Virus record (IMG/VR): IMGVR_UViG_3300028797_000094
Span: 1 to 38,523 of that record
Length of the DNA stretch: 38,523 nt
Direction: 5' to 3' (one strand)
DNA from: a virus
Lineage: Duplodnaviria > Heunggongvirae > Uroviricota > Caudoviricetes
Shown here: one piece after another, positions 10,763 through 36,781 of the stretch
Numbering within the stretch: the first letter of the stretch is position 1
Layout of the letters: each line of letters starts with the position of its first letter
Made by a program: the position numbers and the translations under genes
Notes under the pieces: generated by a model
What the model was told of the DNA's origin: nothing
The model's input: the letters and a program-made list of their open reading frames with translations, nothing else
The model's database searches: none

Positions 10763-12073
10763 ATGAAAATATTTAAGGAATCTAAAAGACTTGTAGAAGA
10801 TGCAAATACACCTAATGTTAACGATATTTCAACAGACAAACTTGCTGATATTGTTCAAGATGAAATTGCAGATGAAGGTAAAAAATTAACAGATGCAGAA
10901 GCTAAACAAGCAGCTCAACAAGTTAAAACTCTTGGTGCTAAAATGGCTGACACAAGCTTAGCTACAGAAAATGCTTTAACAAAAGCTCTTGATAAATGTT
11001 TAAATTTTGCTCTTGATGAAGATGAAGATGGTTGAAATAACCTTTTAATCGTTGGTTTACCAGGCTCTGGAAAAACTGCTATTGTTAACCAATGAGGCGA
11101 TCTTCGTAATGTAAAAATTGTTTTTATTGATGCTAAAAATAGAGATTTACCAACTGCTATTTCTGGTATGCCTGCAAGAGATACAAATGACCCAACTAGT
11201 GTTGCAATGTTAAGAACTACTTATCTTAATCCATTAGACGATTTAAGAAAACTTAATAAAAAAACTGGAGAAGTACTTGAAGATGAAGAGCCTTATAGAG
11301 GTGTTGTATTATTCTTAGATGAATTAAACCGTGCTAAAGGCGATATTCGTGGTTCAGTTTTAACTTTAATTAATGAACATAAAGTTGCTAATGGTAAAAA
11401 TGGTGCTACAAGATATTTTGATAAATTATTATTTACTGTAGCTGCTATTAACCCAACAGAACAAGGCGCTTCAGCAATTGATAAATTAGACTCTGCTGAA
11501 AAATCTCGTTTCTTAAAACACTTAGATTATGATAGTACAGTAAGTGCAGCTAAAAACTTCTTTGAACAATATTTTAATACAAAGATTAAATATATTCTTG
11601 ATGATAAAGATAATCCAAATTTTGCAAAAAGATATATTAAAGCTGTCAGACAAAAAGAATTAGTATTATATCTTTTAACAAGTGTTCAACCTGTTTTCAA
11701 ATTTGATGATAGAGAAGAATATCAAATTACTCGTCGTGAAGATAGAAACTTATTATGTCAACGTACTTTAACAGATGCTATTAAAGCTTGTGATGGAACT
11801 GTTAAGGATTTTATTGAAACTTGTGAAGAAGCTAATTTCTTACCTAAAAAGTTAGATATGATTAAGAGAATTTTAAATGGCTATAAAGATCCAGATGTTG
11901 AACTTCCAAAAGATGCTGCTGCACCTAAACCTGAAAGTGATATAGAAGATAATCCAGAATTATTTGATGGTAAAATAAATACTGGTAGTGGAAGAGATAA
12001 TATTTTCCAACAAAGTGCATCTGATGTTAAATCAACTGTAGCTAGTGCAGTAGATAGCTGGGACGATATGTAA
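10763..12073 (+). CDS. MoxR-family AAA+ ATPase (436 aa, 2 TGA)
   Basis: Read-through gives G(W)NNLLIVGLPGSGKTAIVNQ(W), the Walker A motif. Also Walker B LFLDELNRA, VAAINP sensor and LDSAEKSRF arginine finger. Confidence 0.9.
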
Positions 12074-12086
12074 AAAGGAGACATTT

Positions 12087-13295
12087 ATGTCAAAATTCAG
12101 TAAATTATTCGAAGCGCCAATAACACAAACTATGTCAGATAGAGAATTAAATTTACATGAAAAAATTAGACAAATTTTAATAGATGACGGTCATGGCGCT
12201 CATCATAAAAAATTTGCTGAATTATTTCAATATTTTGATGTAAATATTATCTCAATTGATGAAGATCCTGAATGTACTGCTTATATGGATGATAAGCATT
12301 ATACAATAGGTATTGGTGAAGGTTTTGTTTTTTCACCAGCTTATTTATGACAACTTGGTGTTATTGTTCGACATGAGCTAGCACACTTTATGCTTAGACA
12401 TACTTTAAAATATATGCAATTATTAAGTAAGGAAGCAATGGAACATTTTAATTATAGTAGATCAGTGCATGGTTTATTAAATATTATTGCTGACTTTGAA
12501 ATCTCTAATAAAGTATATTCTGTTAAAGATAAAGGTGTTATTCGTAAATTAATGCTTAATGGGAAAATTATACAAGGTTTAGTAACAGAAGATAGTAGAT
12601 CAGATTGAAAGAGACTTTCAATTGAACAAATGTATAAAAAGCTTGAAGCTGAGATTTATGCAGATCAACAAAAATTAAATCAATTAGCTAATAGTAATAA
12701 TGGTGGTGATTTAAGTGCTACAAATGATTATGTTACAGCTAATATTAGAAAAGCCTCTTTAAAGTATGCATATATGGATACATCTAAACCACGTTTTAAA
12801 TCTGTTCCAAACTGATTAGCTGGTTTAGAAAAAACTGTTCCAGCTATTAAAAACTATCCTGATTTTATGAAAAAATTATTTGCATCTGTTTATGCAGAAT
12901 TTGCTGATGAATCTGAAAAAGTTTTAGAAGATGCAATTAAAACAGTAAAAGATTCTGCTATTATTGAACCTGCTATTATTAAAAAGATAAAAGTTTTTAC
13001 ACCAGAAGAAAAATTAGTAGTTCTTTGTATTTTAGCTTCAATTTTACATAAAGACAAAGCTGTTGATGATGATGAACAAATAAAAATGACTATTAATGTT
13101 AAGCATCAAAAACATTCACCAGAATATGTTGCTTCTTATAATGATACAATAGCAAACTTAAGTGATAAAGATATTAATACTTTAGATTTATATCAAGTTT
13201 TACGTGAGCTTGAAGCTATTATAAAACAAAATCATGAAGAAAATATTACTGGTATTATAGAAGATGCAGCTGCACATGAAAAAGGAGATGAATAA
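12087..13295 (+). CDS. HExxH zinc metallopeptidase of the MoxR/vWA-associated type (402 aa, 3 TGA)
   Basis: Four track fragments are in one frame. CTAYMDD, then GVIVRHELAHFMLRH, then NIIADFEIS (third ligand region). Confidence 0.85.
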
Positions 13296-13298
13296 TTT

Positions 13299-15086
13299 AT
13301 GAAAATGAGTGATTTCACAAATAAAAAATTAGCTGATTTATCTCCAGAAGCTCGTCGTGCTGCAGTTGATGCTATTAATGATATTATTGCTAGTCGTCAA
13401 AAAAACGGTGGTATGGGCAGTTTTCCACTTGGTGGTGGAGGAGATGTTGATATAGATATTGATCCAGATCTTAATAAGCCTGAACCTCAAAATAATGATG
13501 ATATGGAAGACCTTTTAGATGATATTGATATTGATATTAATGACCCAGAAGATCTTTTACCAGAAGAAGATGGAAAAAATGGTAAAGGTAAGGGTAAAGG
13601 TAAGGGTTCTTCAAAAGATGATCAAGATTCAGATGAAAAGTCTGATGACAATGATAATGAAGGTGATGGCACAGGTAAAGACGGTCAAGACAAAGATGAT
13701 AATAAAGCTGATACTAAAGCTAATGGTCAAGGACAAGGTAAAGACCAAGATAAAGATACTAATAGTCAAAATGATAGTGGTGCTGGTGAGCAAGGTGAGC
13801 AAGATTCTGATGAAGATAAATCAGGTCAAGGAAGCTCCAATCAAAAGGGTACTGATGACAACTCATCTGACCAAAAAAATCGTAATGGTGCCTCAGATAA
13901 TATAGATTTTGATACTGGTAGTACTAATAGCGAGCAAGATACTGATAATGATAAAAATACTAGTAGTAAAGCTCAACAAGAATATCAAGGCTATGAAGAA
14001 AATGAAAATGATCCTCGCTTTGATCCAGATGATACAAAACAGCAATCTGGTGGAGATATTGCTGGTAATCAAAATAAAATAGACTATAAACAACATCAAA
14101 TTAATAGAACAATAAATGAAATTAAAGAAACTATTAAAGCAGCTAAAAATAATCCAAAAATTAGTCAAGATACTATTGATAAATTAGAAAAAGATTTAAA
14201 AGACCTTCAAGAAAATAAAGACAAATATTCTAAGATGACTGAAGATCAACTTGGTGATGTTTTAAATAGTTATATTAATGATATTGATGCTGTAAGACCT
14301 GTTTATAAAACTCCTGATACTTCTAAAAGAGGTACTCGTATCAAAAAATTAACTAATGATGAAAAATTCCAAAAAGCATTAGATGATGAGGAATTTGAAA
14401 ATATTCGTAAAGCTGCACTTGATGCTGAAAAAGAAAAGTATCTAAAAGATAGAGAAAATGAAATTAATAAGTATAAAAATTTTGATACTTTACATGATTT
14501 TGAAATTGATCTATATGATACAATAAAAGACCAAGTACAAGAGTACGAAAATAGTATAGATTCTTATTCAAGAATAAATTCAAGATATGAAGATGAAGAT
14601 AATGTTATTATGCCTGGTGAACTTATAACAGATGAACAAAGACTTGAAAAACCAACTATTCAAGTTTATTATGACCAATCAGGCTCTTGAAGTTCAGCTG
14701 ATACTAAACGTGGAGATAAAGCACTAAAAGTTTTGCAAGAAATGGTAGAAAAAGATTTAGTTAAAATTCAAATCTATTATTTTGCTAATAGGATTGCAAC
14801 CGATAGAAATACTTATATTGGTGGTGGTACTACTGCTTGACCACAAATTTGTAATAATATTGTAAATAGTGCAGCTAAAAATGTTATTTTAATGACTGAT
14901 ACAGATATGGATAGCCAAGCTGCTAGCGGCCCTGTTATAGAGGTTCCAGGTTGTGTATGAATTATTTGAAAAAATGGTCAACAAAGTCTAAATATTGCAA
15001 AAAAATTAAGAGGTGTTGCAGATGGTTCTAAAGGCAATCGTCAATATGCATTTGATTCACGCGCACCATTAGATGATGAAGATTAA
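13299..15086 (+). CDS. vWA-domain protein with long acidic low-complexity linker (595 aa, 4 TGA)
   Basis: MIDAS motif YYDQSGS(W), GGGT and ILMTD. D/N/G/Q/S/K-rich disordered region at about 13430-14060. Confidence 0.85.
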
Positions 15087-15104
15087 TATTAAGGAGATAT
15101 AAAT

Positions 15105-15659
15105 ATGAAAGTTTTAAAAGAATCAAAGGAAAAATTACCAATTGATTTTATTACTCAATTTATTTCAAAAGGTTGAGAAGAAGTTGGAAATTTAAAAGCA
15201 AGTATTGATGCAATTAAACAAACTTTTTCTGATGTTAAAGATATTGCAGATATTCTTCAAGACTTATCAGATGCATATTTAATTGCTATTGGACAAATGC
15301 AAGGTGTTTTACAAGATAAGAAATATGTTGATGTCCCAGAAGAAGTAAAAGATAACTTAAAAGAATCTTTAAATGAAGAACTTCCAGATGCTAAAACTTT
15401 AGGCTTAGACAAACCTGAAGAAGAAGCTGCACCTGCTGAAGAACCAGCTCCTGCTGAAGAAGAAACACTTGCTCCTGAATTAGATTTAGAAGATGAAGAT
15501 GTTAAAGAATCTTTAAATGAAGATGTTACTATCATTATTAATGATGAAGATAAACCTTCATTTGATGGTGCTTTTGAATATTTCTGTGATTTTGATGATC
15601 CAGAACCAAGTGAAGAAAATCTTCATGCACAAGCTTATCCTTTTGTAAAGCAACTTTAG
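15105..15659 (+). CDS. Acidic hypothetical protein, possible internal head protein (184 aa, 1 TGA)
   Basis: AAGGAG RBS, MKVLKES start, KESLNE twice, and a helical hairpin resembling a degenerate ferritin-like pair. Confidence 0.6.
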
Positions 15660-15690
15660 TAACTTTAGTTTAATAAAATATTAAAAAATT

Positions 15691-15718
15691 AGTCTAATTG
15701 TTATAATTAGACTTTTTT
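15691..15718 (+). terminator. Putative intrinsic terminator
   Basis: AGTCTAATT-gttat-AATTAGACT followed by a T-run. Confidence 0.65.
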
Positions 15719-15719
15719 A

Positions 15720-15731
15720 TTTGCTAAATTA
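15720..15731 (+). promoter_or_regulatory. TTTGCTAAATTA motif copy 3
   Basis: Directly after a terminator, upstream of ATG 15808. Confidence 0.7.
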
Positions 15732-15807
15732 TTTGATGGAATGTCGGTCTTATTCCTTTCACCGACATTTCGTCATTTAAAATGATAATAAATAAGGAGA
15801 AATACCT

Positions 15808-18800
15808 ATGCAACATAATAAAAGTTTATTAGAATTCTATTTAGATGATATTGATCAAGTTAATGAAGCTCTAACTGAAGGCTTATCTTGGGATGATAAA
15901 GTGGCAGAAGCTGACAAATTATTAGCTGAAATTTGTAATAAATTATCTGTTTATGCAGATGATACTGATGGTTATTGACAATCAGAAGATACTTGATGTA
16001 ATAGAAATTTATATTATATTAATAATTTTGATATTGATGATAAAAATCTTCTTGAAAAGCTTATAGATGAATATAATAAAAAACTTGAAGGTTGTGAATT
16101 CTATTATTATGAAGATGAAGATACTGATGAAGAAGATGACCCAGTTAGTGAAATTGGTTATATATTAGAAGATATTTCAGTAGTTGGTGAATCTTTAACA
16201 GAAGATAAGAAAAAGAAAAAACCTTATTCTTCAATTACATATACAACTGGTGATATTGCACATAATCTAAGACAATTCAATAAACGTATGGGAACAGATT
16301 TCCCTGGTAATGATAATAATAACCCAAGCACAGAAGAAGCTAAGGCTGCTGCACAAGCTGCTAATGGAGAAATTAGTGGTTCAGCTGGTGAAGTTAGTGG
16401 TGCAAGTGGCGAAGTTAGTGGTTCAAATTCTGCAACTAGTGGTGCAAGTGCTGGTGGTGCTTGTGCTGAAAGTTTAGAAGAAGGAATTGTTTTTTCTGAT
16501 AAAGCTCAAAGAGTTCAAATTAAAGATTTACTTGGAACTGAAGATGAATATATTTTAAATAGACTTCAAGCTGGTCGTGATGGCGGCGATGCAATGGGCT
16601 TTGGCTCAACTCCTCATAGACTATCTAAAGAAGATTTAAACTTATTAAAAGATGAATGAATTTATATTGAAGATGACGGTGAATGCTGGTGGGCATGCTT
16701 TGAAAAACCTGTTGCTGAAATTAGAAAACTTTTAGGTTTAGATGAAAATTTAAAAGAAGACTTTGATGATGAAATTCAATATGATGAAGAAGGTAATGAA
16801 TTATTCACACCAGAAGAACAAGAAGAATATGAATGTGATGAATGAGGCTATAGCAATGATGGTTATGACCAATATCATCACTGTGGCTGATGTAAAGAAA
16901 TTTATCCAGAATCTGATATGAGACAAGAAGCTGATTTTGGTTGATTATGTGATAGATGCCAAGATGAATTACATTATCATGGAGGACCATTAATGTTTAT
17001 TGAATGTAAAGAAAATGAAGCTTTAGATAATAAAGTTTGTATTACTTTTGAATGTCCAGAATGTGGATATGAATGAGATGAAACATTTGAAAAAGATTAC
17101 TTTGAAGATGAAGATGACTTAGATGATGTTATGAATAATTCTACTAATGAATGTCCAGAATGTGGCTGTGAAGATTGTTTTGCAAAATCATCTGAATATT
17201 TAACAGAAGATACTTTATATCCATCAAAGAAAGATAATTTTGGAGATGCTATTGAGCTTCCAGCAGAAGTTAAATTAATTGATTCTAAAAAAGTACTTGA
17301 AGTATTAAATAAGCTTGAACCAGAAGAAGAATTTACTGTTGGCTATATTACTCCTGTATTCTTCTATAAAAACTTAATTGATAAATTCCAATTATTAAAG
17401 TGCACAGAATTAAAAGGTACTACTGGTATTGACTATATTGAAGCACGTGTTGGCGATGATGCAAATAAACAAGCACGTTTAGATATTGCCAATAAAACAA
17501 AAGACCTTGGACAAAATAAAGGTGTACATTTAGATAGATGGCCAAATGCTAAACAAGTAGGTGATTTCTCAGCTCAATATTCTGTAAATAATAAAGTAGT
17601 TGTACAACCAAACGGTGAAACAATTTTATTCTATCCAGTTGTTGGACAAAGACCAAAAGTTCGTTATTATTTAAGAACTTATAATGCAAATACTGTTACA
17701 TGAACTGATTGAACTTTAGTTAAACGTGAATTCTTAGAAGATACTATTATAAGATATGTTACATCTATTAAAGATAAATTAGTTGTCTTTAATAAAAATG
17801 GTAAAGCTGCAGCATCTCGTTGAGAAATTGCTGATTTACGTAAAAAAATTGAAAAACAATTAGAGATTGATACTAAGACTATTGAAGCAGTTACTATTGA
17901 TGCTGAAGATAGATGAGAAACAAGATCAAGATTATCTAATGGTAATGTTGCAAAACCTCAAGTAAGAGCTTTATATATAAATCAAGTATTTTATTTAGAA
18001 GCTAATAATCAATATTGAGGTGTTGATATTTTAATGAATGAAAGTTTAAATAAAAATAACAAACCTTTAACAGAAGCTAAACGTTATGTTAGACGTTATT
18101 TCGTTCGTCCTCAACAAATTTTCTGTAGTAATAAATCAGAAATTTTAAAGACTTTAATTGAACTTGGTGATGAAAACTGTTCAGTTTATACTTTAAATAA
18201 CCTTGGTGATGTTAAAGATGTTACTAAATTAACTAATGATGATATTATTTATTATTATGATGATGGAATTCTTTATGATAAAAATCATGTTAAAGTAATG
18301 GATTATGATTTATCTATTAAACATGAAGAAGATCGTAAAAAATATTCTACTGAACCAACAACTTCAGAATTAGCTGGTGATGAATATGATGACAGAATGA
18401 CTAAAGCTACTGTTGTTGAATACTATGATGGTAATAATGAAAATGTTGATCCTCAATCAACTGTAAAACCAAGCAAGGAGGTTCCTATTGTGGACTGTAA
18501 AAAATATGATGTTGTAACACATTCTGAAGATGAAAAACCTTTGGATTGTAAAATGGAAAAGAAACCATTAGAAAAACCTTTAACTGAAGAAGCTGATGAA
18601 TTTGTTGAATTAACAGATGAAGACTTTGAAGAAAGCTTGACTGAAGCTAAAAAAGATGAAGATGAATTACCTCCAGATCCAGAAGTAGTAAAATTAGAAA
18701 CTCACCAAGAATTAAATGATTTAGTTGCTGGTGAAATTAGTACTATTAATGATTATGAAGAAGTAAAAGCTGATATTATAGAAAAACCAGTTGAACATAA

Positions 18801-19446
18801 AGATGATATCATTGATACTATTAATCATATTGAAGATGAAGAAAAAGAACATATTGATGAATTATCTAAGACTGTTTCAGAAATTCCATTTGGTGGAAGT
18901 CATAAAGAAGCAGCTCCTGCTCCAGTAGTTGAAGCTGAACCTGAAGAAGAATTTGTTGAACTTACTGACGAAGATTTAGAAGAAGACTTTGATGAAGAAG
19001 CTCCCGAAGCTGAAGATAAATATTTTGCTTGTATTATTGATGATATAGGTGTTATTGGTTATGTTAAAGCAAAGGATGAAATGGAAGCATACGCAAAAAT
19101 GGAAGATATCTGACCAGAGTATTGTTATAGCAATTACGATGGATATGCTACTGTAGAAGAAGCTACTGCAGAAGAAGTAGAAGAAAATGAATTATATGAA
19201 TCAGTAGATATCAGTAATGTTGATAATGAATTTGATTTAGCTTTTGAATCATATAATGTTTATGGTGAAAAATTAACTGAAGCTAAAAATGATAAATTCA
19301 CTTGTTGTATTTGTGGCGAAGAAAGTTATGGCTATGGAAATAACCCTTATCCAGTAAAAGATGATGGTAGATGTTGTGATAGCTGTAATGCAAAATTTGT
19401 AATTCCTGCAAGAATTGAAGCAATGCATAATAAAAAAGATGAATAA
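15808..19446 (+). CDS. Large acidic multi-domain protein (1212 aa, about 13 TGA) with several Zn ribbons and a ferritin-like domain; putative head cargo polyprotein
   Basis: Single frame from ATG 15808 to TAA 19444. Contains CG(W)C..CDRC, CPECG twice, CCICG..CCDSC, and GEISTINDYE...IEDEEKEHIDEL (ferritin-like E..ExxH). Confidence 0.75.
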
Positions 19447-19467
19447 TTAAAAATAAGGAGGAAGTTT

Positions 19468-22080
19468 ATGGCACTTCCAGAAGATTTTATTTTAGATAAA
19501 TATGTACCCACAAAGCAAGATTTTGAAGATGTTTTAGATGCCAAAAGTACTGGTGCACCACTACAATCAAAATGTACAACTGGTCCTAATAATAATAGAC
19601 CATATTATTATAAAAAGGTCAGAATCTTATTAGTAGCTATATTATTGGGCTGGCCAGAAGCTGTAGAAAGCTTAAAAAAAACTTTAACAACTTATGATGG
19701 GTTTGATATTAAACAATTAAAAGAAATTTTAATAGCTATGAGCAAGCCTCCTTATACAAATGCTTATATAGATAGTTTTGAATACTATAAAAAATTAAAT
19801 GTAAAAGCTCCAGAAAATATTGGAAATATTCAAATACGAGTTAAAAATCAAAATGCTTCATATTTTAGATTAATTACTTATGATATGACTTATGCTACTG
19901 GTGGTAAAAGTGGTACTCGTCGTCATTTATACTTTGGTAAAAAAGTTGGTGATGAATATAAAATTGTTGTTCGTGGAGCCGATGGTGGTGAAAAGTCTTC
20001 TTTTGATGAACCAGTATTTGCAACTATACAAGAAGCTAAGGATTTTGCAGTAAATGTACAAAAAAATCCTATGAAGACAAAAACTAATTTAGGTGCTTGA
20101 AAATATGTAATTAGTGATAAACTTATTGACTATGGTTGAGACTGAGATACACAAAAAAAGAAACAAATAACTGATTTATCAAAAGCCGCTAAGGTTGATA
20201 CAATCTGCGGCCCTGCTTATATTTTTATAAATAGTAAATGTTATGTAGAAAATATGAAAGGAAGTATTAATATGAATACTTTGAATGAAGCAAGTCTTAG
20301 TTACCCGGAACAAAGGGAAAAAATGAGAAAACTTGATGCTGGCACACGTGGATTTAATGTTGCAGCAGCAAGTTATGAAAAAGTTAGATACAATTATAGA
20401 CTGTGCGTTAGTGAAGGTTTTTTAAGAGCTAAAGATTATATTGAGTCTGAACTTCGTAAAATTGGTAGATTGGATTGAATTAAAGATTTGATGCCACAAC
20501 AACCAAAGCCTGCACCACAACCACAACCACAACAACCAACTTTACCAGTACTTACAACACGCGATTTCCATTATGCTGACTTTGCATTTGTAAGAAATAA
20601 TATTGATGAAGATGTTATAAATGATGTTGCAGACCTTGAAAATGCAGTTTTAAAATTAATTTATGCAATAGTATTAAAACGTAAAAATTTAGTTGATGAA
20701 TTAAGAAAATTAATTGTAACTAAATGAAATATTAAAATGGAAGACTTAAAAAAGACAATTACTGATGCTTTAAATGATCAAGCTATTTTACAAGATATTA
20801 CAAATATTGTTAATTTTAAAGAATCTAATGAAAGTTTAGAGGAAGATACTGAAAAAATTAAAGCTGGTAAGTGAGTTAATAAAGGTAAGGAAGGAACTCA
20901 TGGAACTTTTAAAACTAAAAAAGCTGCAGATGCTCAAAGAAAAGCAATGTTTGCAAATGGTTTTTCAGAAGAATATATTAATAAATTAGCAGAAGTATTA
21001 CAAGATCCTAAATACACTGATGTTAAAGAATATTTAAATAATGTAAAACCCAGTGAAGAATTAGAAGAAAAAGTAGAAAAGCATGATACTTTAAATCCTG
21101 TTTTATTTGATGCAAATAATAAACTTTTACCAGAAGTAAGAGAAAAATTATTAGCTATTGCAAAAGAATTTACTGATGGTTTAGAAGAAGATGAAATTAA
21201 ATTTAATTTAAAAGATATTAAATTAGTTGGTTCAAATTGTTCTTATAATTATAATGAAAATTCTGATTTAGATTTACATCTTGTTGCTGAAACTGAATCT
21301 TTAAATTGTCCAGATAATTTATATCCATTATTATATTCGGCTTATCGTAGTATATTTAATAATAAGTTTGACCCAATTATTCATGGAATTCCTGTAGAAT
21401 TATTTGTAGAAACAGAAGAAACAGAACAAATTGATAATAAAGAAATTACTGAAGAAAGACAAAAATCTGCTTTAAATTCTGCTGGTATTTATTCAGTATT
21501 AAATGATGAATGAATTAAAGAACCTGAACAAGCAGATATTCCTGAAATTGATCAAGCTGAATTAGATAAGTTAGTTCAACCTTGAATTGATAAATATAAT
21601 GAAATTAAATTAAATCCAACAGTTGAAGCTATTGAAAAGTATATTGAAGATATTTATGAAATTAGAAAAGCTGGTATTGCTCGTTCTGAATATGATTTAG
21701 ATAATTTAACTTTCAAAGAAGTTCGTGGTCTTGGCTATTTAGATGAATTAAAAGATTTAAGAAATGAATTAAGATCTAAAGAATTAAGTTTAGAAAGCTT
21801 AGAAGAAAGATTAGATGAAAGAACAAGAAGAGAATATCAAATTAAAATTTCACAAATTGCACATGATCAAGCAATTGTTGATGAAAATAATAATTTCTCT
21901 ATTCACTTAGTTAAAGAATCTGATGTTGATCAAATTCTAAGAGGCTTGCGTCAATTAGATTTTGTTTATGATTTAAATAAAATTGCTGGAAAGTTTGATT
22001 TTAGTCATCCAACATTTACAGGAAATCAACCAAGATATTGAACAATTCGTGGTAGAATTAAAGAAAAAGAGGACTTATAA
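19468..22080 (+). CDS. Large multi-domain protein with Pol-beta-superfamily nucleotidyltransferase domain (870 aa, about 9 TGA)
   Basis: Four track fragments are in one frame. LVGSNCSYNYNENSDLDLHLV (hGS..DxD), PVELFVE and AGIYSVLNDE(W)IKEP. Confidence 0.8.
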
Positions 22081-22098
22081 GAGTCCCCTTTTATTTTT
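22067..22098 (+). terminator. Putative intrinsic terminator
   Basis: GGACT-tataag-AGTCC stem with flanking A/T runs. Confidence 0.5.
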
Positions 22099-22108
22099 AA
22101 TAAATATA

Positions 22109-22120
22109 TTTGCTAAATTA
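22109..22120 (+). promoter_or_regulatory. TTTGCTAAATTA motif copy 4
   Basis: Intergenic; extends as TTTGCTAAATTATACGTAAAATAA, identical to the copy at 37671. Confidence 0.7.
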
Positions 22121-22156
22121 TACGTAAAATAAAAATTCTTTATAAAGGAGACCAGT

Positions 22157-23923
22157 ATGCTTTTAGAGGAATTAGTAAATATCGAAGAACGTACTTGAGA
22201 TTATGATGATATTAAATATTGAATTAATCCAAAAGATAATACTTGTAATGCAACTATTATTTTTAATGGAAGAAGCTCAAGATTACGTGCTGGCATTATT
22301 ATTTTAAAAGACGATGAAATTTTACTTGGTGAAGAAGCTGATGAGCCTGGCGTATTTAGTTTGCCTGGTGGTGGATTAGAAGAAGGCGAAACTCCTATCG
22401 AAGCTGCTGTTCGTGAAGCGCAAGAAGAAGTTTATATCAATGTAAAAGATGCAGTTGATACAAAATTTGATTATTGTGAATGTCATGATGAAGTAAAAGA
22501 TTGAGTTAGGGATAATGTTCCAGATGAAGAATGGTGATATAATTATTATACATGCTTAATTATTGCAACATATAATGGTAAATATAAAGGCAAAGTTGAT
22601 AAAGTTGACCAAGATAAACCAATGAAAAATTCTGCTAAATGATATAAAATTGATGAAGTAATTAATGACCCATCATTTAAAGAACAATGGAAAAAAGCAA
22701 TTGAAGCTTACAAAACATATCCACTAGATGAAGCCGTTAATTTCCATCATTATACTTATGAAGGTCCTGTTTATGTTTTTAATGATTATATTGGTGAAAC
22801 TAATTTAGAAACAAGAGCAGTATCTTTTGCTAAAGCTAAAAATAATTTAATTTTCCAAGCAGCAAGTAAGTTTGGTTATGATAGAGCAGCTGGTGCAAAA
22901 ATTAAAATTAATTCAGATTTAATAGTAGATGAAGATGAAAAAGATTTTAAAGATATTGAACCAATAGCAACAGATAATAGAAAACGTTGTCCAAACTGTG
23001 GAACTCATTTAAATGATGCTGGTGAATGTCCAGTATGTGACTTGGGTGATGAAGATATGCTTTATGAAAGTTTATTATTAGAAGATACTCGTGCTCAACT
23101 TGCTAATGCTTCTAAAAATGCTGGTGAATATAAAAATAAAGTACGTGGCAAAAATCGTTGAGAAAGAAAGAAATATTCTAAAGTTTCAACTCAAGTAAAA
23201 AGTTATAATCAAATTAATATGAATGAATTCTTCAAACAAGATATTCTTCAAATTAAAATTCCTGTTCAAGGTGAGACTGATGAATATACTGTAACTATTA
23301 AACTTGAAGGTGTTGTTGAAGAAATTGCAAGACATATTAAACAACATAATAATCAATTTGAATTTAAAACTGTTTTACAGTCATTAACAAAAATATTTAA
23401 TACTAAAAATGTTTATGTAAAATGTACTTGTGAAGATTTCCAATATCGTTTTAATCACTGGTCAATTATAAATAATTATGGTGTTGATGATACTTCAAAA
23501 GACCCAGGCCCTGGAAAAGGAATTGCAAATCCTGCTAATGATAAAGGAAAAGGTTGTAAACATATTTTATTGTGTTTAGCAAATGGTTCTTGAATAATGA
23601 AAGTTACTTCTGTTATTATGAATTATTGTAATTATGCTGCAGAAAATATGAAACAACCATTCTTAAAATTAATATTCCCTAAATTATATGGAATTCCTGC
23701 AGATGAAGCTATTGAAGATAATTTAGTTCCAGAAGATACAGATTTACAATCAGATACTAATTTAATTGATACAATTAATAGCTGAGCTAAAGACCGTGGT
23801 AAATTTAAGAAAGGCTCTAATAAAAATCCTATTACTAATACTGGTGGTAGACAAAAGAAAGTAGAAGAACCAGAAGGAAAAGATACTGATAAAGAAGAGC
23901 CTGAGGAAAAGAGCGAAGAATAA
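22157..23923 (+). CDS. Nudix hydrolase + Zn ribbon + SWIM-domain fusion protein (588 aa, about 8 TGA)
   Basis: Nudix box LPGGGLEEGETPIEAAVREAQEEVY, CPNCG..CPVC, and SWIM motif VKCTCEDF...GCKHIL. Confidence 0.85.
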
Positions 23924-23969: not shown

Positions 23970-26036
23970 ATGATGTCTGATGAACAAGAATTATTACAGC
24001 AATCTTTAGCTGGATTATCTCCTGAAGAACGTGCACAGGTTTTAAAAATCTTACAACAATATGCACAAGAAGGAGAATCTGCTTTAGAAGAAGACTTAAA
24101 ATGAGCTGACTGAAAAGAAATTCCTGTTGATATAGAAACATTTATTCATGATCAACAATATCTTGGTAAAGGTTTATATGATGCAGAAGGTCGTTTTACA
24201 GTTTACCCATATTGAGAAGAAAAGTTAAAAGAAGTTTTTCCAACTAATACAACTACCAGATACAATAATATTGTGTTAACTGGTTCTATTGGTATTGGTA
24301 AATCTTTCTTTGCTGTTCTTTGTATTTTATATATGCTTTATAGAATTATGTGCCTAAAAGACCCTTATACTTTTTTTGGTTTACAATCTATTGATAAGCT
24401 TTCTATTTCATTTATGAATATTACAATTGAAAATGCTAAAGGTGTAGCACTTTCAAAAATGAATGAACTATTATTATCAAGTGATTGATTTATGGCACAT
24501 GGCGAAATGAGAGGTGTAACTAATTTAGTTTATCATCCAGATGCACGTATTGAATTTATTGCTTCATCAAGTAATAATCAAATCATAGGTCGTTGTATTA
24601 TTTGTAATTTTTCAGATGAAGTTAACTTCTCAACAACAAGTAATGTTGAAAAAGCCAAAAGAAAAATGCTTAAACTTATTACACAAGTTGATGCCCGTAT
24701 GCGTTCACGTTTCTTACGTGGAACTTATTTACCAACTTTAAATATTTTAGCTTCTTCAAAAGATACAGACCAAGCATTCTTAGATGATTATATTAAGAAT
24801 AAACGTGAAACAAATTCTCAAACTACTTTAATTGTAGATGAACCGCAATGGGTAGTTGATGACCGTAAAAATTCTGATAGAAAATTCTGAGTTGCAGTTG
24901 GTAATAAATTTTTATCAAATGAGTTATTACCACTTGATGTTTCTCCAGAAAAAATTGAAGAAATGCGTGGTCAAGGTTATGACATGTGGGAAGTTCCTAT
25001 TGGATATTTAGAAACTTTCCAACAAAACTTAGATGAAGCAATTTGTAGTATCATCGGTATTGCTACTGCAAGTACTTTAAAATATATTTCTGGTGAAAGA
25101 TTAAATCAAACAAAAACTGATAGTTATCAAAATCCATTTACAAAAGACGTTATTGAAGTTGGAAATGGAATTGAAGATCATTATCAATATTCTAATTTCT
25201 TTGATTTATCTAAGGTTTCACCAGATGATTTAAGAAAACCTTTATTTATGCACCTTGACTTGTCTTTGTCAGGAGACATGACTGGTATTGCTGGTGTATG
25301 AATTGATGGTTGGAAACAAACTGCTAAAGTAATTCCTGGACAAACATCTGCAGAAGATGAAATTAGTTATTCAAGGGATTTACAATATAAATTAGCATTC
25401 TCTGTTTCTGTTAAAGCTCCAAAAGGTTTTCAAGTATCGTTTGAAAAAACAAGAAACTTTATTAGATGACTTCGTGAACAAGGTTTTGATATTAAAGTAA
25501 TTTCATCAGATACATTTAACAGTGCTAATATTCGTCAAGATTTAGCAGCTGATGGATTTAAGACTGAAATACTTTCTGTCGACCGTGTTGAAGCTTCTAC
25601 TAAAACACAACTTGCTTATGCATATTTTAAAACAGCAATTTATGAACGCCGTATTAAAATATATAAGAAATGTGATTTATTAACAAAAGAAATTACTGAA
25701 CTTGAAAAACTTTCTGATGGTCATATTGAGCACCAAAATGCTGGTAAAACTGGTTCAAAAGACCAATGTGATGCAGTATGTGGTAGTTTATATATGGCAA
25801 GTAAATACTCAGAACAATATTCATATGAATATGGTGATCAACTAATTGAAGATATTAATGTCAATTTAGAAGATACTAATAATTCAATGGATAAAGCTAC
25901 ATTTATTCAAAATTTACAAAATGATTTACTTCAGATATGGCAAGAAGAAAATAAGGCTTTTAAAAACGCCGAGTTAAGAGACCAAGAAGAAGAATTATCA
26001 CTACAAGATATTGTAGATGGAATTATAGTCTTATAG
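23970..26036 (+). CDS. terL: Terminase large subunit (688 aa, about 7 TGA)
   Basis: Walker A VLTGSIGIGKS, Walker B NFSDEVN, ILASS motif III, nuclease MHLDLSLSGD, SSDTFNS and GSKDQCDAV. Directly upstream of the portal gene. Confidence 0.92.
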
Positions 26037-26045
26037 GAGAAAATT

Positions 26046-28154
26046 ATGGCTGAAGAAAAGAAAGAAAAAAACTTAACTAAACCAAAACAATCAAAGTCTA
26101 ATTTAACTGGTGCACAAGCTAAACCGACAGTCTTAGATAATACTGTTAAGTTAGATATTGATACTAAACAAACTTTAATAGATGATATTATTCAAGGTGG
26201 CTTAACTGGTGGCTTAGATATATCAAAGTTAGAAGAATTTACTGCTATTTCTAATAGTCGTGAACAAATTTATACTTTAATTGATACAATGGCTGCTGAC
26301 TCTGATGTTAGTGCAATTATTAAAGTATATGCTGAAGAAGCTACAGAAGCAGCTGATAATGGCCACGTTATTTGAGCCGAGTCAGATGATTCTAAAGTTA
26401 GTATGTATGTCAATTATTTATTAAATGTAATGAATGCTGACAAACAAATGTATAAATGAGCTTATAACTTAATTAAGTATGGTGATGTTTATTTAAGACT
26501 TTATCGTGAATCTGAATATCAAGATAGCTTATTTGATTCAAATACTATTAATAAAGTTTATAGTAGTAGAAATGTTTTAAATGAAGATTTAAATAAATTA
26601 TTAAGTGAAATTGCAAACCCAGTTGTTGCTGGAAATGCTGAATTAAATAGCTCAACTGATAAAGAAAAATTAGATGAAGCTGTTAGAATGAATATTCACT
26701 CACCAAGTGATCCTTATAGTTTATACATTGAAATGGTTGATGACCCTGGTACAATGTTTGAATTATGCAGACTTGGAAAAACATTTGGTTATGTAGAAGT
26801 TCCAAATGATGATAGTCAAAATAACTATTTAAATAACTATTTAGTTAATACAAATGGTAATATGAATTCATTAGTTGGAAACTATAGAATGAAATCTAAT
26901 GATGTTAATATTTATCAAGCTGATGACTTTGTTCATGCTTGCTTAGAAGATTCAAATTCTCGTTATCCTGAAAAGATTGAATTATTTAAAGTTGATGAGA
27001 ATGACCCTGAAAAGACTTCTACTATAAGTTCATCTTATAATGTTCGTCGTGGTAAATCAATGCTTTATGACTCATATAAGATTTGGCGTGAAAAATCATT
27101 ACTTGAAGATGTTATTCTTTTAAACCGTGTTACTAAATCAAGTATTATTAGATTAATTCAAATTGAAGTTGGTAATATGGGTAAAGTTCAATCAAGAAAT
27201 GTTGCTAAACAAACAAAAGCTTTATTTGAACAAAAATCAGCAATTAATACAGATAAGTCATATGCAGAATATGCAAATATGGGTCCAGTAGAAAATAATG
27301 TTTATATTACTACTCATAATGGCCAAGGTGCTGTTTCAGTAAGTGCTGTTGGTGGTGATGTAGATGTTAAAGGTCTTGCTGACTTAGATAACTGGATTAA
27401 TAAATATTATTCAAGTTTTGGTATTCCAAAAGCATATTTTGGTTATACAGATGATGGCGCTGGTTTTAATGGTGGTACTTCACTTGCTATTATTTCAAGT
27501 GTATTTGCTAAAGGTGTTAAACATATTCAAAATGCTTTAATCCAGGCATTATCTGATGCTATTAACTTAATCTTAGTTAATAAAGGATTAATGTCGTATT
27601 TAAATAACTTTACATTAAAAATGCAAGCACCAATTTCACAAGAAGAATTAGACTTTAGAGCAAACTTCAGTGAAAGAATTAATGCAGTAAGTAATTTCCA
27701 AGGTCTATTATCAAATGTTGAAACTCGTTCAAGACAATTAGAAATTGCTAAACAATTAGTTGCAAAACTAAATTATGGCGATGAAATTCTTGATATATTA
27801 GATAAAGAAATTAAAGCTGCCCAAGCTGCCGAAGAAAAAGCGGAAAAAGAAGCTGAAGCTGAAGCTGCTGCAAATGCAGGTGGAGGCGAAGCTGGTGGCG
27901 GAGACCTTGACCTTGACTTAGGTGGAGGTGAAGAAACTGGTGGTGAAGAAGTTGGTGGTGGAGAAGACTTAGACTTAGACTTAGGTAATTCTTCTGAGGC
28001 TCCAATGGAAAGCTTTAAGCCAGCTGAAGAAGCTCAACCATTAATTGAAGATATGGACTTAGATTTAGACCAATCAGATTTCTTAACAGAAGATGACAGT
28101 CTACCAACTCCAGAAGAACTTGATAAAGATAAAGACTTTTCAAGAAATAATTAA
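26046..28154 (+). CDS. Portal protein, T4 gp20-like (702 aa, 2 TGA)
   Basis: K(W)AYNLIKYGDVY, RGKSMLYDSYKIW..LLEDVILLNRVTKSSIIRLIQIEVGNM and SFGIPKAYF. Acidic Gly-rich tail. Confidence 0.9.
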
Positions 28155-31844: not shown

Positions 31845-33650
31845 ATGGCTAAAGATTATAAAAATATTATGGAAGCCTTTAAGATGATGCCTCTTTCAGA
31901 AGATGAAAAAAGCAAGCGTCATATTTTAGGTAGACTTTTTGGACCAATCGCAACAACTAAAGATAGTACTCGTAATGGTAGATTTTATAATGCACAATTA
32001 TGGGAATCTGCATTAAAAGATGAAATCTTCTTAGAAAAAGTTGCAACAAAGAGTTTATTCTTAGAGTTAGGCCATCCAACAGATAGAGAAGAAATTGATA
32101 TGTCTAAAGCATGTGCCTGCATTCCAGAAGTACCTAAGATTGTAAATGGCGACTTATATGCTTATGTTGATATTCTTGATACACCTAATGGTCGTATTTT
32201 AAAAACATTATGTGATTATGGATTCCAACCTGGTATTAGTTCACGTGGTTCTGGTGATGTTGATATAAATAATGAAGTTGACCCAGAAACATTCTTCTTA
32301 GAAACATTTGATATCGTAGGTATTCCTGCTGTTAAAAAGGCACGTTTAGCAGTTTGCGAATCTTTAGACACTGATAATATTAAATTAAGAAAAGCTTTAA
32401 AAGAATCTTTAAATAAAGAAAAAGTTGAAGATCAAGAAATTGTTAAAGAAGCATTAAGTAATTTAAAATTTACTTTAAATGAAGATGCTGATGAACCATT
32501 TGAAGATATTGAAGTAGGCGAACCTGAAATCGTTGAACCAGATGCAGAATTTGTTGAACCTGAGTTTGATGATGAAGAAGAAGAAGGTGAAGCTCCTGCA
32601 GCTTTAGAAGAACCTGAAAATGAAATGCCTAATATCACAGTTGGTGAATTAATTGATCATTTAGATGATTTTGATAAAGAAGCTCCAGTTGAATTTGCAC
32701 CTATTGAAATTGAAGGTGTTGAATATAAAGTGGATGCTTGAAATTATGTAGCAGATGATGAAAAGCTACATATTAACTTAGATATCATTCCTGCAGAGGA
32801 AGATGATATAAATAGTGAAGAGGTTGCTGAACAACCTGAAGATGCTACTGATGAAACAGTAGTTGATGAGCCTGTTCTTGCTGGTGAAGAAAATCCTAGT
32901 GATGAAGCCATTGATGATGGAGCAGCTGAACTTATTGCAAGTTTAAAGGAAATGATTCGTCAAAAAGAAAGTCTTGAAGCTGATGCCAAAGCTCTTAAAG
33001 AAAGTGTGGCAGTTAGTGATACTAAAGTTAAGAAACTTGAAGAAGAACTTAGTCAGTACAAGAATTCATTTGCAAGATTAAGCACATTAGCAGCTGAATC
33101 AAAAGAAGCAAAGAAAGAAGTTCAAAAACTTACTGAACAATTAAACATTAAAGAACAAACAATTAAAACATTACAAACTAACCAAGCAAATGCTAAAGCA
33201 CTTACTGAAAGCGTTAATGAGCAAGCTAATAAGTCAAAAGTTCTTGCTGAGAAATTAGCTACAAGAACATCTGAACTTGAAAAAGCTCAAACTGCATTAA
33301 ATGAACAGGCTGAAAAGCATCAAGCTGAAATAGCTAAGTACACTCGTGTTGCTAAAAACTATAAAGCTAAATATCTTGAGGCTGCTCATAAATATGTAGA
33401 AATGAAAGCATCAATGCTAGGTGTCAAGACTAGTGAAATTACTAGCAGACTTAATGAAGGTTGAACTTTTGATGATGTTGATAGAGTTTGTGATAAGATG
33501 CTTGAAAGTGTAAAACCAAGTTTTGGCTTGGCACGTGACGCTAAAGTTAAATTAGTTGAATCAAGACAACCAAGAACTACAGTTAATAATGTAGATGGCG
33601 GTTATGAAATTGATGATGACTTATTAATCTTAGCAGGTTTAAAAAAATAA
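31845..33650 (+). CDS. Prohead protease (T4 gp21-like) fused to scaffold/core coiled coil (601 aa, 2 TGA)
   Basis: TRNGRFY, ELGHP, ILDTPNGRIL, GISSRGSG and FDIVGIPA, then an acidic linker, a coiled coil and C-terminal LILAGLKK. Confidence 0.9.
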
Positions 33651-33681: not shown

Positions 33682-35001
33682 ATGAGACAAAATTTACTTG
33701 AAACTTATTCAAGACAAATTAAAGTTGCTGAAGCATATGTTGCTAAAAACTTTGATGGCAGAAATGTTTCAGATAACACTAAATTAGCTACTGCTGTATT
33801 ACTAGATAATACAAATCGTTGGATCACTGAAGCTTTAGAAGGAAGCTTTACTGATGCTACAAGACGCTCTGACTTAGGCGCATGGAAGAAATTCTGCTTA
33901 AACTTAACTAATATCGCTGTTCCATCACTAATCGCTAATGATTTAGTAATCGTTCACCCAATGACATCTTACAGTGGCTCAGTTGCATACTTAAAGTATG
34001 TTTCTAAGACTGATAAAGGTGGAATCAAAAAAGGTGATGAATTCAATAGCGTATTCCGTATGGGAGATCCTGCTCTTGATAAAGAAGCAAGAAGAGAATT
34101 CACTTCTCAAATCATCGTTGAACCTACTGGTTCTGCATTAGCTTTCGAAGCTGAAGAAAACGGTCTAGTTTACGAAGACAACAATGCAATTAAATATGCT
34201 ACTTACAAATCAATCTTCGCTGATGGTTCATTCGTTTATGGCGAAGAAATTGCTGAAGATGCAGTTAAAGTTGCATACGTTGCAAAGCAATTCCAAATGA
34301 ACTATGTTCCATCTCAAGATATCCCTACATTAGGACCAGTTATGGAACACATCGCATTAGTTGCACAACCAAGACGTATCGCTGTTAAATACGATCAAAT
34401 TAGTGCATTCCAAGCTAAAACTGATTATGGTTTCAGTCTTGACAAACAAATCGCTGAACAAGCTTGTGGTGAATTAGCATATGAAATCGATACTGAAATC
34501 GTTAATATGTTAAAAGAAGGTGCTGGTGAAGCTCTTCCTGAATTAACATTCTCTAAGACACTTCCTGTCGGCGTTTCTAAATTCGAACATTACAATGGAT
34601 TCTTAGAAGTATTTGAAGCTGCAAGAGCTATCATCTATAAGAGAACTCGTAAATTCCATCCTAACTACATGGTAATCGCAGCTGATTGCTTACAAGTATT
34701 ACGTTTCGTTAATGGTTGGTCAGCAGTTAAGAATGCTAAGATGAATGGTCCTTACAAAGTTGGTGAAATTGATGGCGTTGCTGTATACGTTTCTCCAGAA
34801 CTTGAAAAAGGTGAATTCTTCATGGGCTTAAATGGTAACGATATGATGAGCAGTGCTGGTGTTTATGCACCTTACATGGCAATCGTTCCAACTCAATTAC
34901 TTGGCACACCTGATGGTGGATTAATGCAAGGCTTCAGTACTTGGTATGCTAAAGCTTTATTAAATGAAAACTTACTAGTTGCTGGTAAGATCATTGACTA
35001 A
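33682..35001 (+). CDS. Major capsid protein, T4 gp23-like
   Basis: PSLIANDLVIVHPMTSYSG, ELAYEIDTEIV and AGVYAPY. Strong high-expression codon bias (TTC/AAC/ATC/TAC). Follows the protease-scaffold gene. Confidence 0.95.
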   Translation: MRQNLLETYSRQIKVAEAYVAKNFDGRNVSDNTKLATAVLLDNTNRWITEALEGSFTDATRRSDLGAWKKFCLNLTNIAVPSLIANDLVIVHPMTSYSGSVAYLKYVSKTDKGGIKKGDEFNSVFRMGDPALDKEARREFTSQIIVEPTGSALAFEAEENGLVYEDNNAIKYATYKSIFADGSFVYGEEIAEDAVKVAYVAKQFQMNYVPSQDIPTLGPVMEHIALVAQPRRIAVKYDQISAFQAKTDYGFSLDKQIAEQACGELAYEIDTEIVNMLKEGAGEALPELTFSKTLPVGVSKFEHYNGFLEVFEAARAIIYKRTRKFHPNYMVIAADCLQVLRFVNGWSAVKNAKMNGPYKVGEIDGVAVYVSPELEKGEFFMGLNGNDMMSSAGVYAPYMAIVPTQLLGTPDGGLMQGFSTWYAKALLNENLLVAGKIID

Positions 35002-35079: not shown

Positions 35080-35096
35080 TCTGAAAGGTGAAACCT

Positions 35097-36779
35097 ATGG
35101 TAAATTTATTCTATTGAAATGATATTATTAATGCTGGCGACTACTATGCACAATGATTAGCTACTAAGCTATATAAAGAAGTTAAATATAGTCGCAGACC
35201 AAATCTAGTTATTACTGGTTCTATCTTAAGTTGAAATGAACTTAATAATAGTACTATTGTTTGGGGTAGTGGTTTACATAATAGTAATATAAATGAGTAT
35301 TGTAGAATAACAAATAAATCTAATTTTAAAGCTGTCCGTGGTCATTTAACAGCTAAAAAATTACAACTTAATAATATAACTGTTGGTGACCCAGGCATAT
35401 TAATTTCTAAATATTATAAAGCAAAAAATTGTATTAGTAGAAAAAGATATTGCTTAGTTTGTCATTGGAAAGACTATGAAGAATGTAAAAAATTATATAG
35501 TTCTTATATAGATGTTATTAGTATGGGCACTACTAATATTGAGGCACTTGCTGATACTTTAAATAAATATGAATTAGTATTATCTACTTCATTACATGGA
35601 ATAATTTTTGCTCACAGTTATAATATTCCTGCAATTCATGTTGAATTTAATAAGCTTGAAAGTATAGATGATTTTAAATATAAAGATTATTATTCAACAA
35701 TAGATATTAAATATGAAAAGAAAACTTTAACTAAAACTTTATCAAAAGATTTAACTATTTTTAAAAATCTATATCAAAATAAAAATCTATACAAACCATC
35801 ACAAGATTGTATTAAAACTCTTCAAAATAATTTAATAAAAGTTTTACCAACAGAACAAGATTTAAATCCAAAATATAATGCAGTATTATGTGCTATTGCA
35901 AAAAATGAAAATAATTATATTAATGACTGAGTTGAATATTATTTAAATCTTGGTTTTGATCATATTTATTTATTTGATAATAATGATTCTAGCACACCTT
36001 GAGTTGGTGGAAGAATTAAACAAATAGATAAAGTTACTGTCTTTAATGTTAATAATCAACATATAAAAGGTATGCAATTAAAATGTTATAATAATTTCTA
36101 TAAACAGTTTCGTAATAACTTTAATTGAGCTTTATTCTGTGATATAGATGAATATTTAACAGGAATTGAAAATATAAATACTTTTTTAGATAATAGAAAA
36201 TTTAAAAACTTTGAAATGATAAGAGTTAAGTGAAAACTTTTTGGCGATGATGATTTAATTGATCGTAATAGACAAATACCAATTTATAAAGCACTTACAA
36301 AAGTTATTATAAATAATTCTTTGTCAAATCAAGGAAAATGTTTTGTACGTGGAAGCTTAACAAATATTTGTGTTGGCTCTTGCCATTATGCTTTCCGTGG
36401 AGATTGAGATATTAATAATTTAGAAAAAAGAGATTTAGAAAAGACTACAACTGTTTTAACTGAATGCTTACCTTCTGGTATTATTTGTAATAGTAGAATT
36501 AGTATTAAAGAAGATTATTCTAATGAAACTGTTTATTTAAATCACTATATGACTAAAACCTTGGCTGAATTTTTAGAACAAAAGTTTAATCGTGGTGATG
36601 CTTGTTTTGATACTAAACAAATATCACTTGATTATTATTGACAATTAAATAAAAAGACAGAAGAAAAACTAAACTTTGCTAAAAATTATTTTAAAACTAT
36701 TCAAAAAGAAATAAAACCTGCAAAGAAACCAGCTAAAACATATTTTGGTGGGGCTAATTCTTATTTTAGAGGCTGATAA
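35097..36779 (+). CDS. Polysaccharide pyruvyltransferase (ExoV-like) fused to GT-A glycosyltransferase (GT2/GT92-like) (560 aa, about 10 TGA)
   Basis: N-domain: FY(W)..NAGD, GSIL, VWGSG, AVRGHLT, GDPG, STSLHGIIFAHSYNIP. C-domain: CAIAKNEN.YIND(W)VEYYLNLGFDHIYLFDNN, N(W)ALFCDIDEY, LNHYMTKT. Confidence 0.88.
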
Positions 36780-36781
36780 TT

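Follow-up and report, generated by a model that had tools for sequence, protein, structure and literature searches.

Candidate cargo polyproteins jointed by prohead-protease sites in an uncultured T4-like jumbo phage

We found four genes (positions 15105-23923) in the first 38.5 kb of the phage genome IMGVR_UViG_3300028797_000094 that we predict to encode head-internal cargo polyproteins, which the prohead protease of the same phage would cut into about 20 pieces; we put the probability of this reading at about 0.65. The window analysed is that first stretch of a single-contig, 237,392-bp genome (~29% G+C), and its source is an uncultured, T4-like jumbo phage in which TGA is recoded. The joints between the modules of the four proteins repeatedly carry the motif Leu-x-Glu (L-x-E; below, a slash after the Glu marks the predicted cut). 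In T4, gp21 cuts head-internal proteins after Glu at L/I-x-E, a rule that the original prediction on this DNA had stated correctly, and a 10-residue leader ending in such a site suffices for prohead targeting (PMC9026906). We infer the following course of loading, cutting, retention and ejection: the cargo polyproteins would be expressed together with the head genes and would enter the scaffold core of the prohead, perhaps by means of short N-terminal leaders, whereupon the gp21-type (S77) protease would cut after Glu at Leu/Ile-x-Glu in exposed linkers. This would free about 20 small proteins, including a Nudix hydrolase, a nucleotidyltransferase, a poly-Lys peptide, Zn-binding modules, a ferritin-like two-helix module and others, which would stay in the capsid with the DNA; some would probably enter the host at infection, where they may serve in anti-defence or host takeover.

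Leu-x-Glu sites, module borders and the prohead protease

Under translation table 11, the region falls into fragments, while table 4, which reads TGA as Trp, yields a tight plus-strand gene array with four intact, closely packed open reading frames (ORFs) of 184, 1212, 870 and 588 amino acids (aa), exactly the four genes that had been proposed to be hidden by recoding (Table 1). Readings with table 11 and with TAG as Gln were rejected, as they give no intact genes, and TGA is assigned to Trp because the TGA codons align with Trp of standard-code relatives (e.g., in the NDEW motif of the nucleotidyltransferase module). No tRNA genes are present in the window. Judged by the capsid protein, the closest phages in culture are SP-15 and LIS04 (Thornevirus), at ~29% identity.

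Every junction hexapeptide listed in the original prediction is present at a junction-like position, and about 17 L-x-E sites fall at junctions of the four proteins. Two extended forms of the motif stand out: ESLxE occurs seven times against 0.12 expected and L[TNE]E 18 times against 5.5 expected, counts reached by none of 2000 within-protein shuffles. Bare L-x-E is seen 38 times against 24.7 expected, and 7 of the 2000 shuffles reach this number. X-x-E of every kind is raised 1.3- to 2-fold relative to the rest of the proteome because the four proteins are rich in Glu; given the modest bare excess, Glu richness, which had been named as a possible full account of the motif, therefore explains much of bare L-x-E but not ESLxE or L[TNE]E. 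Among the residues at P3 (the third before the cut, with P1 the last), Leu is the most enriched by shuffle (z 3.0), followed by Val (1.9), with the rest at 1.3 or lower. Across the whole proteome (73,059 aa) there are nine instances of ESLxE, seven in the four genes and two in a 956-aa polyprotein-like gene past the window. Ser codons of both families (TCT, AGT, AGC) are used at the sites and Leu is encoded by TTA, TTG or CTA, which shows that selection acts on the peptide rather than on the DNA. Elsewhere in the genome, a 371-aa ORF at genome positions 113688-114803 shows the highest excess of L-x-E followed by a small or acidic residue (5 against 0.8 expected).

Searches of metagenomic proteins place the motif at the same borders in distant homologues. 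A phmmer search with gene 2 against 1.84 billion representative proteins gave 2694 matches at E ≤ 1e-3, with 127 at E ≤ 1e-30; the counts for m6 and for the internal module starts below are from the best 150 of the 2694 matches. The modules of gene 2 (m1 to m10; Table 1) recur alone or variously combined in proteins of 113-1293 aa, and the most widespread, m6, is found in 111 of these best 150, at any position in the protein. In the residues directly before m6 in these 111 proteins, P3 is Leu in 74 and Ile in 9, P1 is Glu in 86 and P1′ is Ala in 73, with P2 and P4-P8 variable, and the same P3/P1 pattern precedes m5. For m8, 16 aligned homologues show at least 90% conservation of the Leu and Glu in the L-x-E ahead of it, and those ahead of m10 are present in 30 (P3 Leu) and 35 (P1 Glu) of 70 homologues in ungapped register. 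At 261 internal module starts, L.E is found nearby in 40%, against 17% at random positions, with no enrichment of L.D, L.K, A.E or K.E and a depletion of the first two. On gene 2 itself, the starts of high-scoring segment pairs (HSPs) concentrate at aa 125-135 and 460-469. Module genes that stand alone (poly-Lys and SWIM modules) open with an M-x(1-6)-[LI]-x-E/ leader, as in the SWIM genes that start MTQILNE/, MTILNE/, MIILQE/, MNLFE/ (cultured SP-15) and MILFE/ (cultured LIS04). Polyproteins with L-x-E joints are displayed by phages of code 4, 11 or 15 with 25-54% G+C, and an S77 protease is encoded in 7 of 10 related viral records, the other three being fragments.

Two syntenic relatives from IMG/VR, a 223-kb genome (83% portal identity) and a 232-kb genome, show domains being gained and lost precisely at the motifs, a check that had been proposed for relatives of this phage. 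A viral-contig search with single-protein patterns from gene 3 had returned nothing, and an alignment-based query succeeded. The four genes encode 186, 1212, 1106 and 780 aa in the first relative and 165, 686, 671 and 455 aa in the second, and the differences from the window correspond to whole modules inserted, deleted or reordered exactly at L-x-E/. In the first relative, gene 3 has an insert of ~230 aa between NEDLVE/ and NESLEE/, and gene 4 has one of 190 aa directly after PLDE/; in the second, the middle module of gene 4 is absent and the Nudix module is joined straight to the SWIM module at ALQE/. The KWVNKGKEGTHG module precedes the nucleotidyltransferase in two of the phages and follows it in the other. 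Between the window and the first relative, conservation of the gene 2 leader (KSLLEFYLDDID.V.E.L.E/) extends up to the L-x-E, beyond which the proteins are unrelated; both have this leader, the poly-Lys module, m6, m8 and the terminal Zn ribbon, with different modules in between, and m9 is not in the close relative. Overall, an L-x-E is found no more than 5 aa from 41 of 101 homology breakpoints, where randomly placed sites give 13.8, and A.E, K.E, E.E, V.E and D.E show no excess at these 101 breakpoints. Such module-wise homology backs the description of the four proteins as made of unrelated small domains.

The gp21-like protease proposed at position 31845 proved to be of the T4 gp21 type: it matches Pfam Peptidase_S77 (PF03420) with 41.2 bits against a cut-off of 27 and the T4 gp21 crystal structure (PDB 5JBL) at E 9e-5, and it retains the GHP and SSRG motifs with the catalytic His and Ser. 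Its ORF, which continues into a scaffold, has a fourfold excess of L-x-E-type sites (z 4.3; second of ~250 ORFs in the genome) and, together with genes 1 and 2, is among the four ORFs of the genome most enriched in them. The sites in its linker are LKE/S and TLNE/D, and a relative reads KESLNE/E there, the same string as in gene 1. The examples of the motif claimed for the scaffold, portal and capsid proteins are all present. In the portal protein, the sites lie near both ends and are kept in a relative (SKLEE/ at aa 62-64; LIE/D and LTE/D at aa 666-682). In the major capsid protein, WITE/A (aa 48-50, nt 33823-33831), directly ahead of the conserved gp23 core, is a candidate propeptide cut site; its ITE/A is conserved in a relative, whereas the adjacent ALE is not.

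Predicted structure points the same way for one stretch. An AlphaFold model of gene 2 aa 457-885, built on a 36-sequence alignment, has a mean predicted local distance difference test (pLDDT) score of 81.5 and two folded domains, m5 and m6, with low-confidence segments at aa 457-463, 693-696, 746-759 and 868-885. The site KPLTE/ (aa 754-756) sits within the sole long low-confidence linker between the domains, and EYLTE/ and VVE are at the outer domain edges, so that in this one model the motif does occur at predicted domain boundaries, as first suggested; the remaining L-x-E of the modelled region is inside a helix. The gene 4 model is poor (six sequences, mean pLDDT 50.6) and carries little weight; both of its junctions are in low-confidence stretches.

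Alternatives and points that weigh against cutting

An unlikely alternative is that these are polyvalent proteins that remain uncut, packaged or not, in which the L-x-E acidic linkers are a favoured linker, a helix cap or a docking motif for the scaffold or the capsid interior. Glu-rich linkers lift all X-x-E counts, polyvalent proteins of 2-15 domains are known beside head genes, with some, such as N4 vRNAP, packaged unprocessed (PMC5512222), and the cassette found within the nucleotidyltransferase module of one phage (see below) would also suit this explanation. Yet what is conserved is specifically Leu at P3 and Glu at P1, while P2 varies; stand-alone genes, which have no need of a linker, keep an M-x-x-L-x-E leader; the borders are depleted in L.D and L.K; and the motif fits the T4 gp21 rule in a genome that encodes an S77 protease.

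We consider it improbable that a different protease does the cutting, either a candidate metallopeptidase (12087-13295, beside MoxR and vWA genes) or a host glutamyl endopeptidase. The candidate gene lies 2 kb upstream, and zincin-like peptidases have been predicted to cut polyvalent proteins (PMC5512222), but its product has no Pfam or PHROG peptidase match and the four proteins themselves have no peptidase domain detected with Pfam or PHROGs. Moreover, cutting after Glu with Leu/Ile at P3 is the documented gp21-type rule, and the same sites are found in the capsid leader and in the linker of the S77 protease itself. A very improbable alternative takes the motif mainly as a recombination joint for swapping modules, with no proteolysis. 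Modules are indeed swapped, inserted and permuted exactly at the motif, but the junction Ser and Leu codons differ, and because these codons, P2 and the flanks vary, there is no extended DNA identity to recombine on; we therefore rejected a joint that acts at the DNA level. Shuffling and cleavage are in any case compatible, as in the T4 internal-protein genes with their shared leader. That the motifs arose by chance in ordinary Glu-rich proteins, as the modest excess of bare L-x-E might suggest, is scarcely credible given seven ESLxE against 0.12 expected, the coincidence with breakpoints, the conservation of the motif in over 100 distant homologues and its place in a linker of the model.

Several observations weigh against processing of the four proteins by the prohead protease. 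Bare L-x-E is only modestly above composition, and about half of its 38 sites are inside modules, where they would need to stay uncut. Some borders in gene 2 (aa 868-870, aa 1025-1030 and those at HSP starts around aa 890) carry V-x-E or lack an obvious site. An N-terminal L-x-E leader is unspecific, being found in 37 of 250 ORFs against a background of ~8.5%; we found no similarity to the capsid targeting sequence (CTS) of T4. In the standard-code phage IMGVR_UViG_3300028591_000507 (7820-11329, 1169 aa), the gene 4 middle module (HYTY..CPVCDLGD) is located inside the nucleotidyltransferase module, flanked by LSE/ and LEE/, which is awkward if every L-x-E site is cut. The Thornevirus SWIM protein gene lies between the neck and sheath genes, and the LIS04 copy is annotated as 'tail protein'; the SWIM module might therefore be part of the neck or tail rather than head cargo. 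Finally, m5 and m6 have no match in 50,697 GenBank phage records.

Modules of the four proteins and their neighbourhood

Table 1. Features of the window; nucleotide positions are those of the window, residues those of the respective protein.
Feature	Position	Strand	Residues	Description
Gene 1	15105..15659	+	184 aa	1 TGA codon; leader MKVLKE/, helical N-terminal part, acidic linker, small conserved C-terminal module (FEYFCDFDDPEP)
12-mer TTTGCTAAATTA	15720..15731	+		intergenic, upstream of gene 2
Gene 2	15808..19446	+	1212 aa	13 TGA codons
Gene 2 leader	15808..15879	+	aa 1-24	MQHNKSLLEFYLDDIDQVNEALTE/; candidate targeting or leader peptide
Gene 2 m1-m4	15880..17208	+		borders from motif positions
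m1			aa 25-132	ends ESLTE/
m2	16204-16482		aa 133-225	poly-Lys basic module, ends ESLEE/
m3			aa 226-317	ends ENLKE/
m4			aa 318-467	Cys-rich, Zn-ribbon-like, ends EYLTE/
m5	17209..18075	+	aa 468-756	folded alpha/beta domain in model, ends KPLTE/
m6	18076..18588	+	aa 757-870	AKRYVRRYF..., then tail to KPLEKPLTE/ (aa 927)
Acidic spacer and m8	18589..18984	+	aa 928-946; aa 947-1059	spacer ends ESLTE/, followed by m8
m9 and m10	18985..19446	+	aa 1060-1158; aa 1159-1212	m9 ends EKLTE/; m10 C-terminal, Cys-rich, putative Zn ribbon
Gene 3	19468..22080	+	870 aa	9 TGA codons
Gene 3 A			aa 1-274	ends NTLNE/
Gene 3 B			aa 275-459	ends ESLEE/
Gene 3 C			aa 460-534	small KWVNKGKEGTHG..QRKAMFANG module, ends ELEE/
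Gene 3 D			aa 535-780	likely Pol-beta-type nucleotidyltransferase, ends KELSLESLEE/
Gene 3 E			aa 781-870	
Gene 4	22157..23923	+	588 aa	8 TGA codons
Gene 4 Nudix hydrolase			aa 1-192	ends YPLDE/
Gene 4 middle module			aa 193-309	with putative Zn ribbon, ends ESLLLE/
Gene 4 SWIM-type module			aa 310-588	tentative assignment
Large terminase subunit	23970..26036	+		tblastn to annotated terminase large subunits, E 1e-57
Portal, T4 gp20-type	26046..28154	+		Pfam Portal_T4, E 5e-33
Prohead protease-scaffold	31845..33650	+		S77 domain (aa 1 to ~175), acidic linker, coiled-coil scaffold
Major capsid protein, T4 gp23-type	33682..35001	+		Pfam Gp23 match from aa 67

The effectors that the original prediction had listed for these proteins hold up to different degrees. 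The Nudix module of gene 4 is solid: over aa 42-176 it matches Pfam NUDIX at E 4.8e-15 (56.2 bits; cut-off 21.1), and its Nudix box (G x5 E x7 R E U x E E), which reads GGLEEGETPIEAAVREAQEE, is intact, including the REx2EE. Module D of gene 3 is likely a Pol-beta-type nucleotidyltransferase: it matches phrog_36119 at E 3e-23, the Pfam MTPAP-like match is weak, and homologues in GenBank phages carry a nucleotidyltransferase annotation. The SWIM assignment at the end of gene 4 is weak; all six homologues match PF04434 below its cut-off (best E 8e-4), and the CxCxnCxH ligands C423, C425, C467 and H469 (aa ~420-470) are invariant in the six, while a profile of the module gave rows at chance level against solved structures. 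For m8, a two-helix module (aa 947-1045; 18646-18942) with conserved E..INxY and EExEH motifs, weak, sub-threshold matches to EncB (7s5k, E 0.12) and to Pfam Ferritin, DUF2383, COQ7 and EncFtn-like (E 0.02-0.1) hint at a ferritin-like (EncFtn-like) domain. Some metagenomic proteins hold an m8-type module twice in tandem. The Zn ribbons are suggested by Cys patterns only.

The basic module m2, a poly-Lys stretch followed by a conserved TTGxIxxNxxxFNxxMG segment, may be a DNA-binding internal peptide; in proteins of other phages it is often N-terminal, after an M-x(3-6)-[LI]-x-E leader of 4-8 residues. Gene 1 begins MKVLKESKEKL and bears two KESLNE/ sites in its linker (aa 86-91 and 134-139), and the linker L-x-E is kept in its homologues in the two syntenic phages. 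Module C of gene 3 is flanked by L-x-E in polyproteins of phages with codes 4, 11 and 15. Most modules, including the two most widespread (m5 and m6), appear to lie outside known families and folds in the searches run. Pfam and PHROGs gave no match for genes 1 and 2, Foldseek against the PDB found no convincing match for the m5 and m6 folds (best E 0.025), and a wide VIA-align comparison reached at best Z 5.1, with rows of small beta-barrel or WYL-like structures, from which a new fold is not implied.

The gene neighbourhood of the four genes is that of a T4-like head-gene cluster, with a PhoH gene among the T4-like head genes of the window. The terminase profile found no match in the PDB. The 12-mer TTTGCTAAATTA recurs at 22109 (upstream of gene 4), 29679, 31810 (protease), 35068 and 37671/37749 (neck gene) and, with at most one mismatch, is found 14 times within 6668-37760 against 2.3 expected, which makes it a candidate for a shared late promoter element. 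Directly upstream of gene 1, the stretch 10763-15086 encodes a MoxR-type AAA+ ATPase (PHROG ATPase matches) and proteins of 402 and 595 aa; the ATPase and the 402-aa protein begin MKIFKESKRLVE/ and MSKFSKLFE/, and they may be packaged as part of this set too. The stretch 35088-37564, which separates the capsid gene from the neck gene, encodes a pyruvyltransferase-glycosyltransferase fusion (Pfam PS_pyruv_trans and Glyco_tranf_2_4) and contains a second gene. Just past the window (38537-41407, 14 bases beyond its end), directly after a gp13-like neck gene, a 956-aa protein forms a further chain of modules with long acidic linkers and a repeated KKHCA.NDS.NLTLNE/ unit, in the slot of the SP-15 genes 037/038, the latter coding for the SWIM protein. 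In the second relative, the terminase homologue (12783-16370) has 1195 aa against 688 aa in the window, which suggests a large insert or an intein; the terminase genes of SP-15 and HSE3 are interrupted too, and the HSE3 record annotates an intein region.

Relation to known systems and biological meaning

Calling this an undescribed system, as was done at the outset, is too strong: it is better described as a variant, in polyprotein form, of how T4 processes its internal proteins and of the predicted polyvalent proteins. The T4 internal and core proteins (IPI, IPII, IPIII, Alt, gp67 and gp68) likewise depend on an S77 protease that cuts after Glu with Leu/Ile at P3, have short N-terminal leaders ending in the site, are encoded with the head genes and constitute diverse cargo that varies among relatives, with Alt as a precedent for an injected enzyme. 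Unlike the four genes here, with up to ~10 unrelated modules per ORF and internal sites, T4 has one gene per cargo protein, from which a terminal peptide is removed. No sequence similarity of the four proteins, which are known from sequence alone, to T4 internal proteins was found. The polyvalent proteins (Iyer, Burroughs, Anand, de Souza and Aravind 2017, PMC5512222) are alike in having 2-15 domains, in their extensive shuffling and in their location beside virion genes, the four genes being directly upstream of the terminase and portal genes; they too have been predicted to accompany the DNA and to come free as individual units (PMC5512222). They differ in that their processing is ascribed to an embedded zincin-like (MPTase) or other peptidase, whereas here a prohead-protease motif marks the junctions. 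In the four proteins, Pfam and PHROGs revealed neither a peptidase domain nor the polyvalent hallmark domains (MuF, DarB-type methylase-helicase, ParB-like, ArdC and others), an absence that is not proven because several modules have no assigned fold. Nudix genes amid morphogenesis genes have also been proposed to have head-packaged products (PMC9503650).

The inner-body or ejection proteins of the jumbo phages phiKZ, 201phi2-1 and SPN3US offer another parallel, as a diverged gp21-type protease (gp175/gp245) cuts many of their head-internal proteins after Glu, and they are packaged in bulk and ejected. Their motif is S/A/G-x-E, and cutting at 13 of the 14 sites mapped in SPN3US removes an N-terminal propeptide (PMC10052503), in contrast to the P3 Leu of the present phage, whose products would be many folded modules. 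The phiKZ-type S/A-x-E rule was rejected for the four proteins, in that A.E is unenriched at the borders and neither A.E nor S.E is above composition by shuffle, and searches of phage collections found no homology to phiKZ-type inner-body families. The protease-scaffold fusions of the herpesvirus UL26/HK97 type, an arrangement also seen in the window protease, and the polyproteins of RNA viruses are similar in that one ORF is cut at defined sites by a capsid or viral protease, but these chains comprise assembly or replication proteins and not variable accessory modules. Full-text searches turned up no description of tailed-phage polyproteins jointed by prohead-protease sites, which is not proof of absence.

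We posit, as a more general proposal that the evidence leaves evenly balanced, a 'string and cut' strategy in T4-related jumbo phages, of which many are recoded and uncultured: small proteins would be fused in a few late ORFs behind one leader, a single loading event would bring in a fixed-ratio set of ~20 proteins that the prohead protease then frees, and modules would be exchanged between phages at the joints. Proteins injected from the capsid are prime candidates for early anti-defence or takeover functions because they act before phage gene expression, and those known so far come from few cultured phages, each as a separate gene. If cargo is encoded as polyproteins with readable cut sites, this would explain how such sets stay in fixed ratios and are exchanged as cassettes, and several widespread orphan domains would gain their first functional context. 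If it holds, a basic DNA-condensing peptide would parallel the core proteins of adenovirus, and a ferritin-like cargo inside a phage head would parallel that of encapsulins. The same arrangement would lend itself naturally, as a design, to the loading of several foreign proteins into T4-like capsids, and, if 'string and cut' is true, one could read from sequence which proteins thousands of uncultured phages package and inject.

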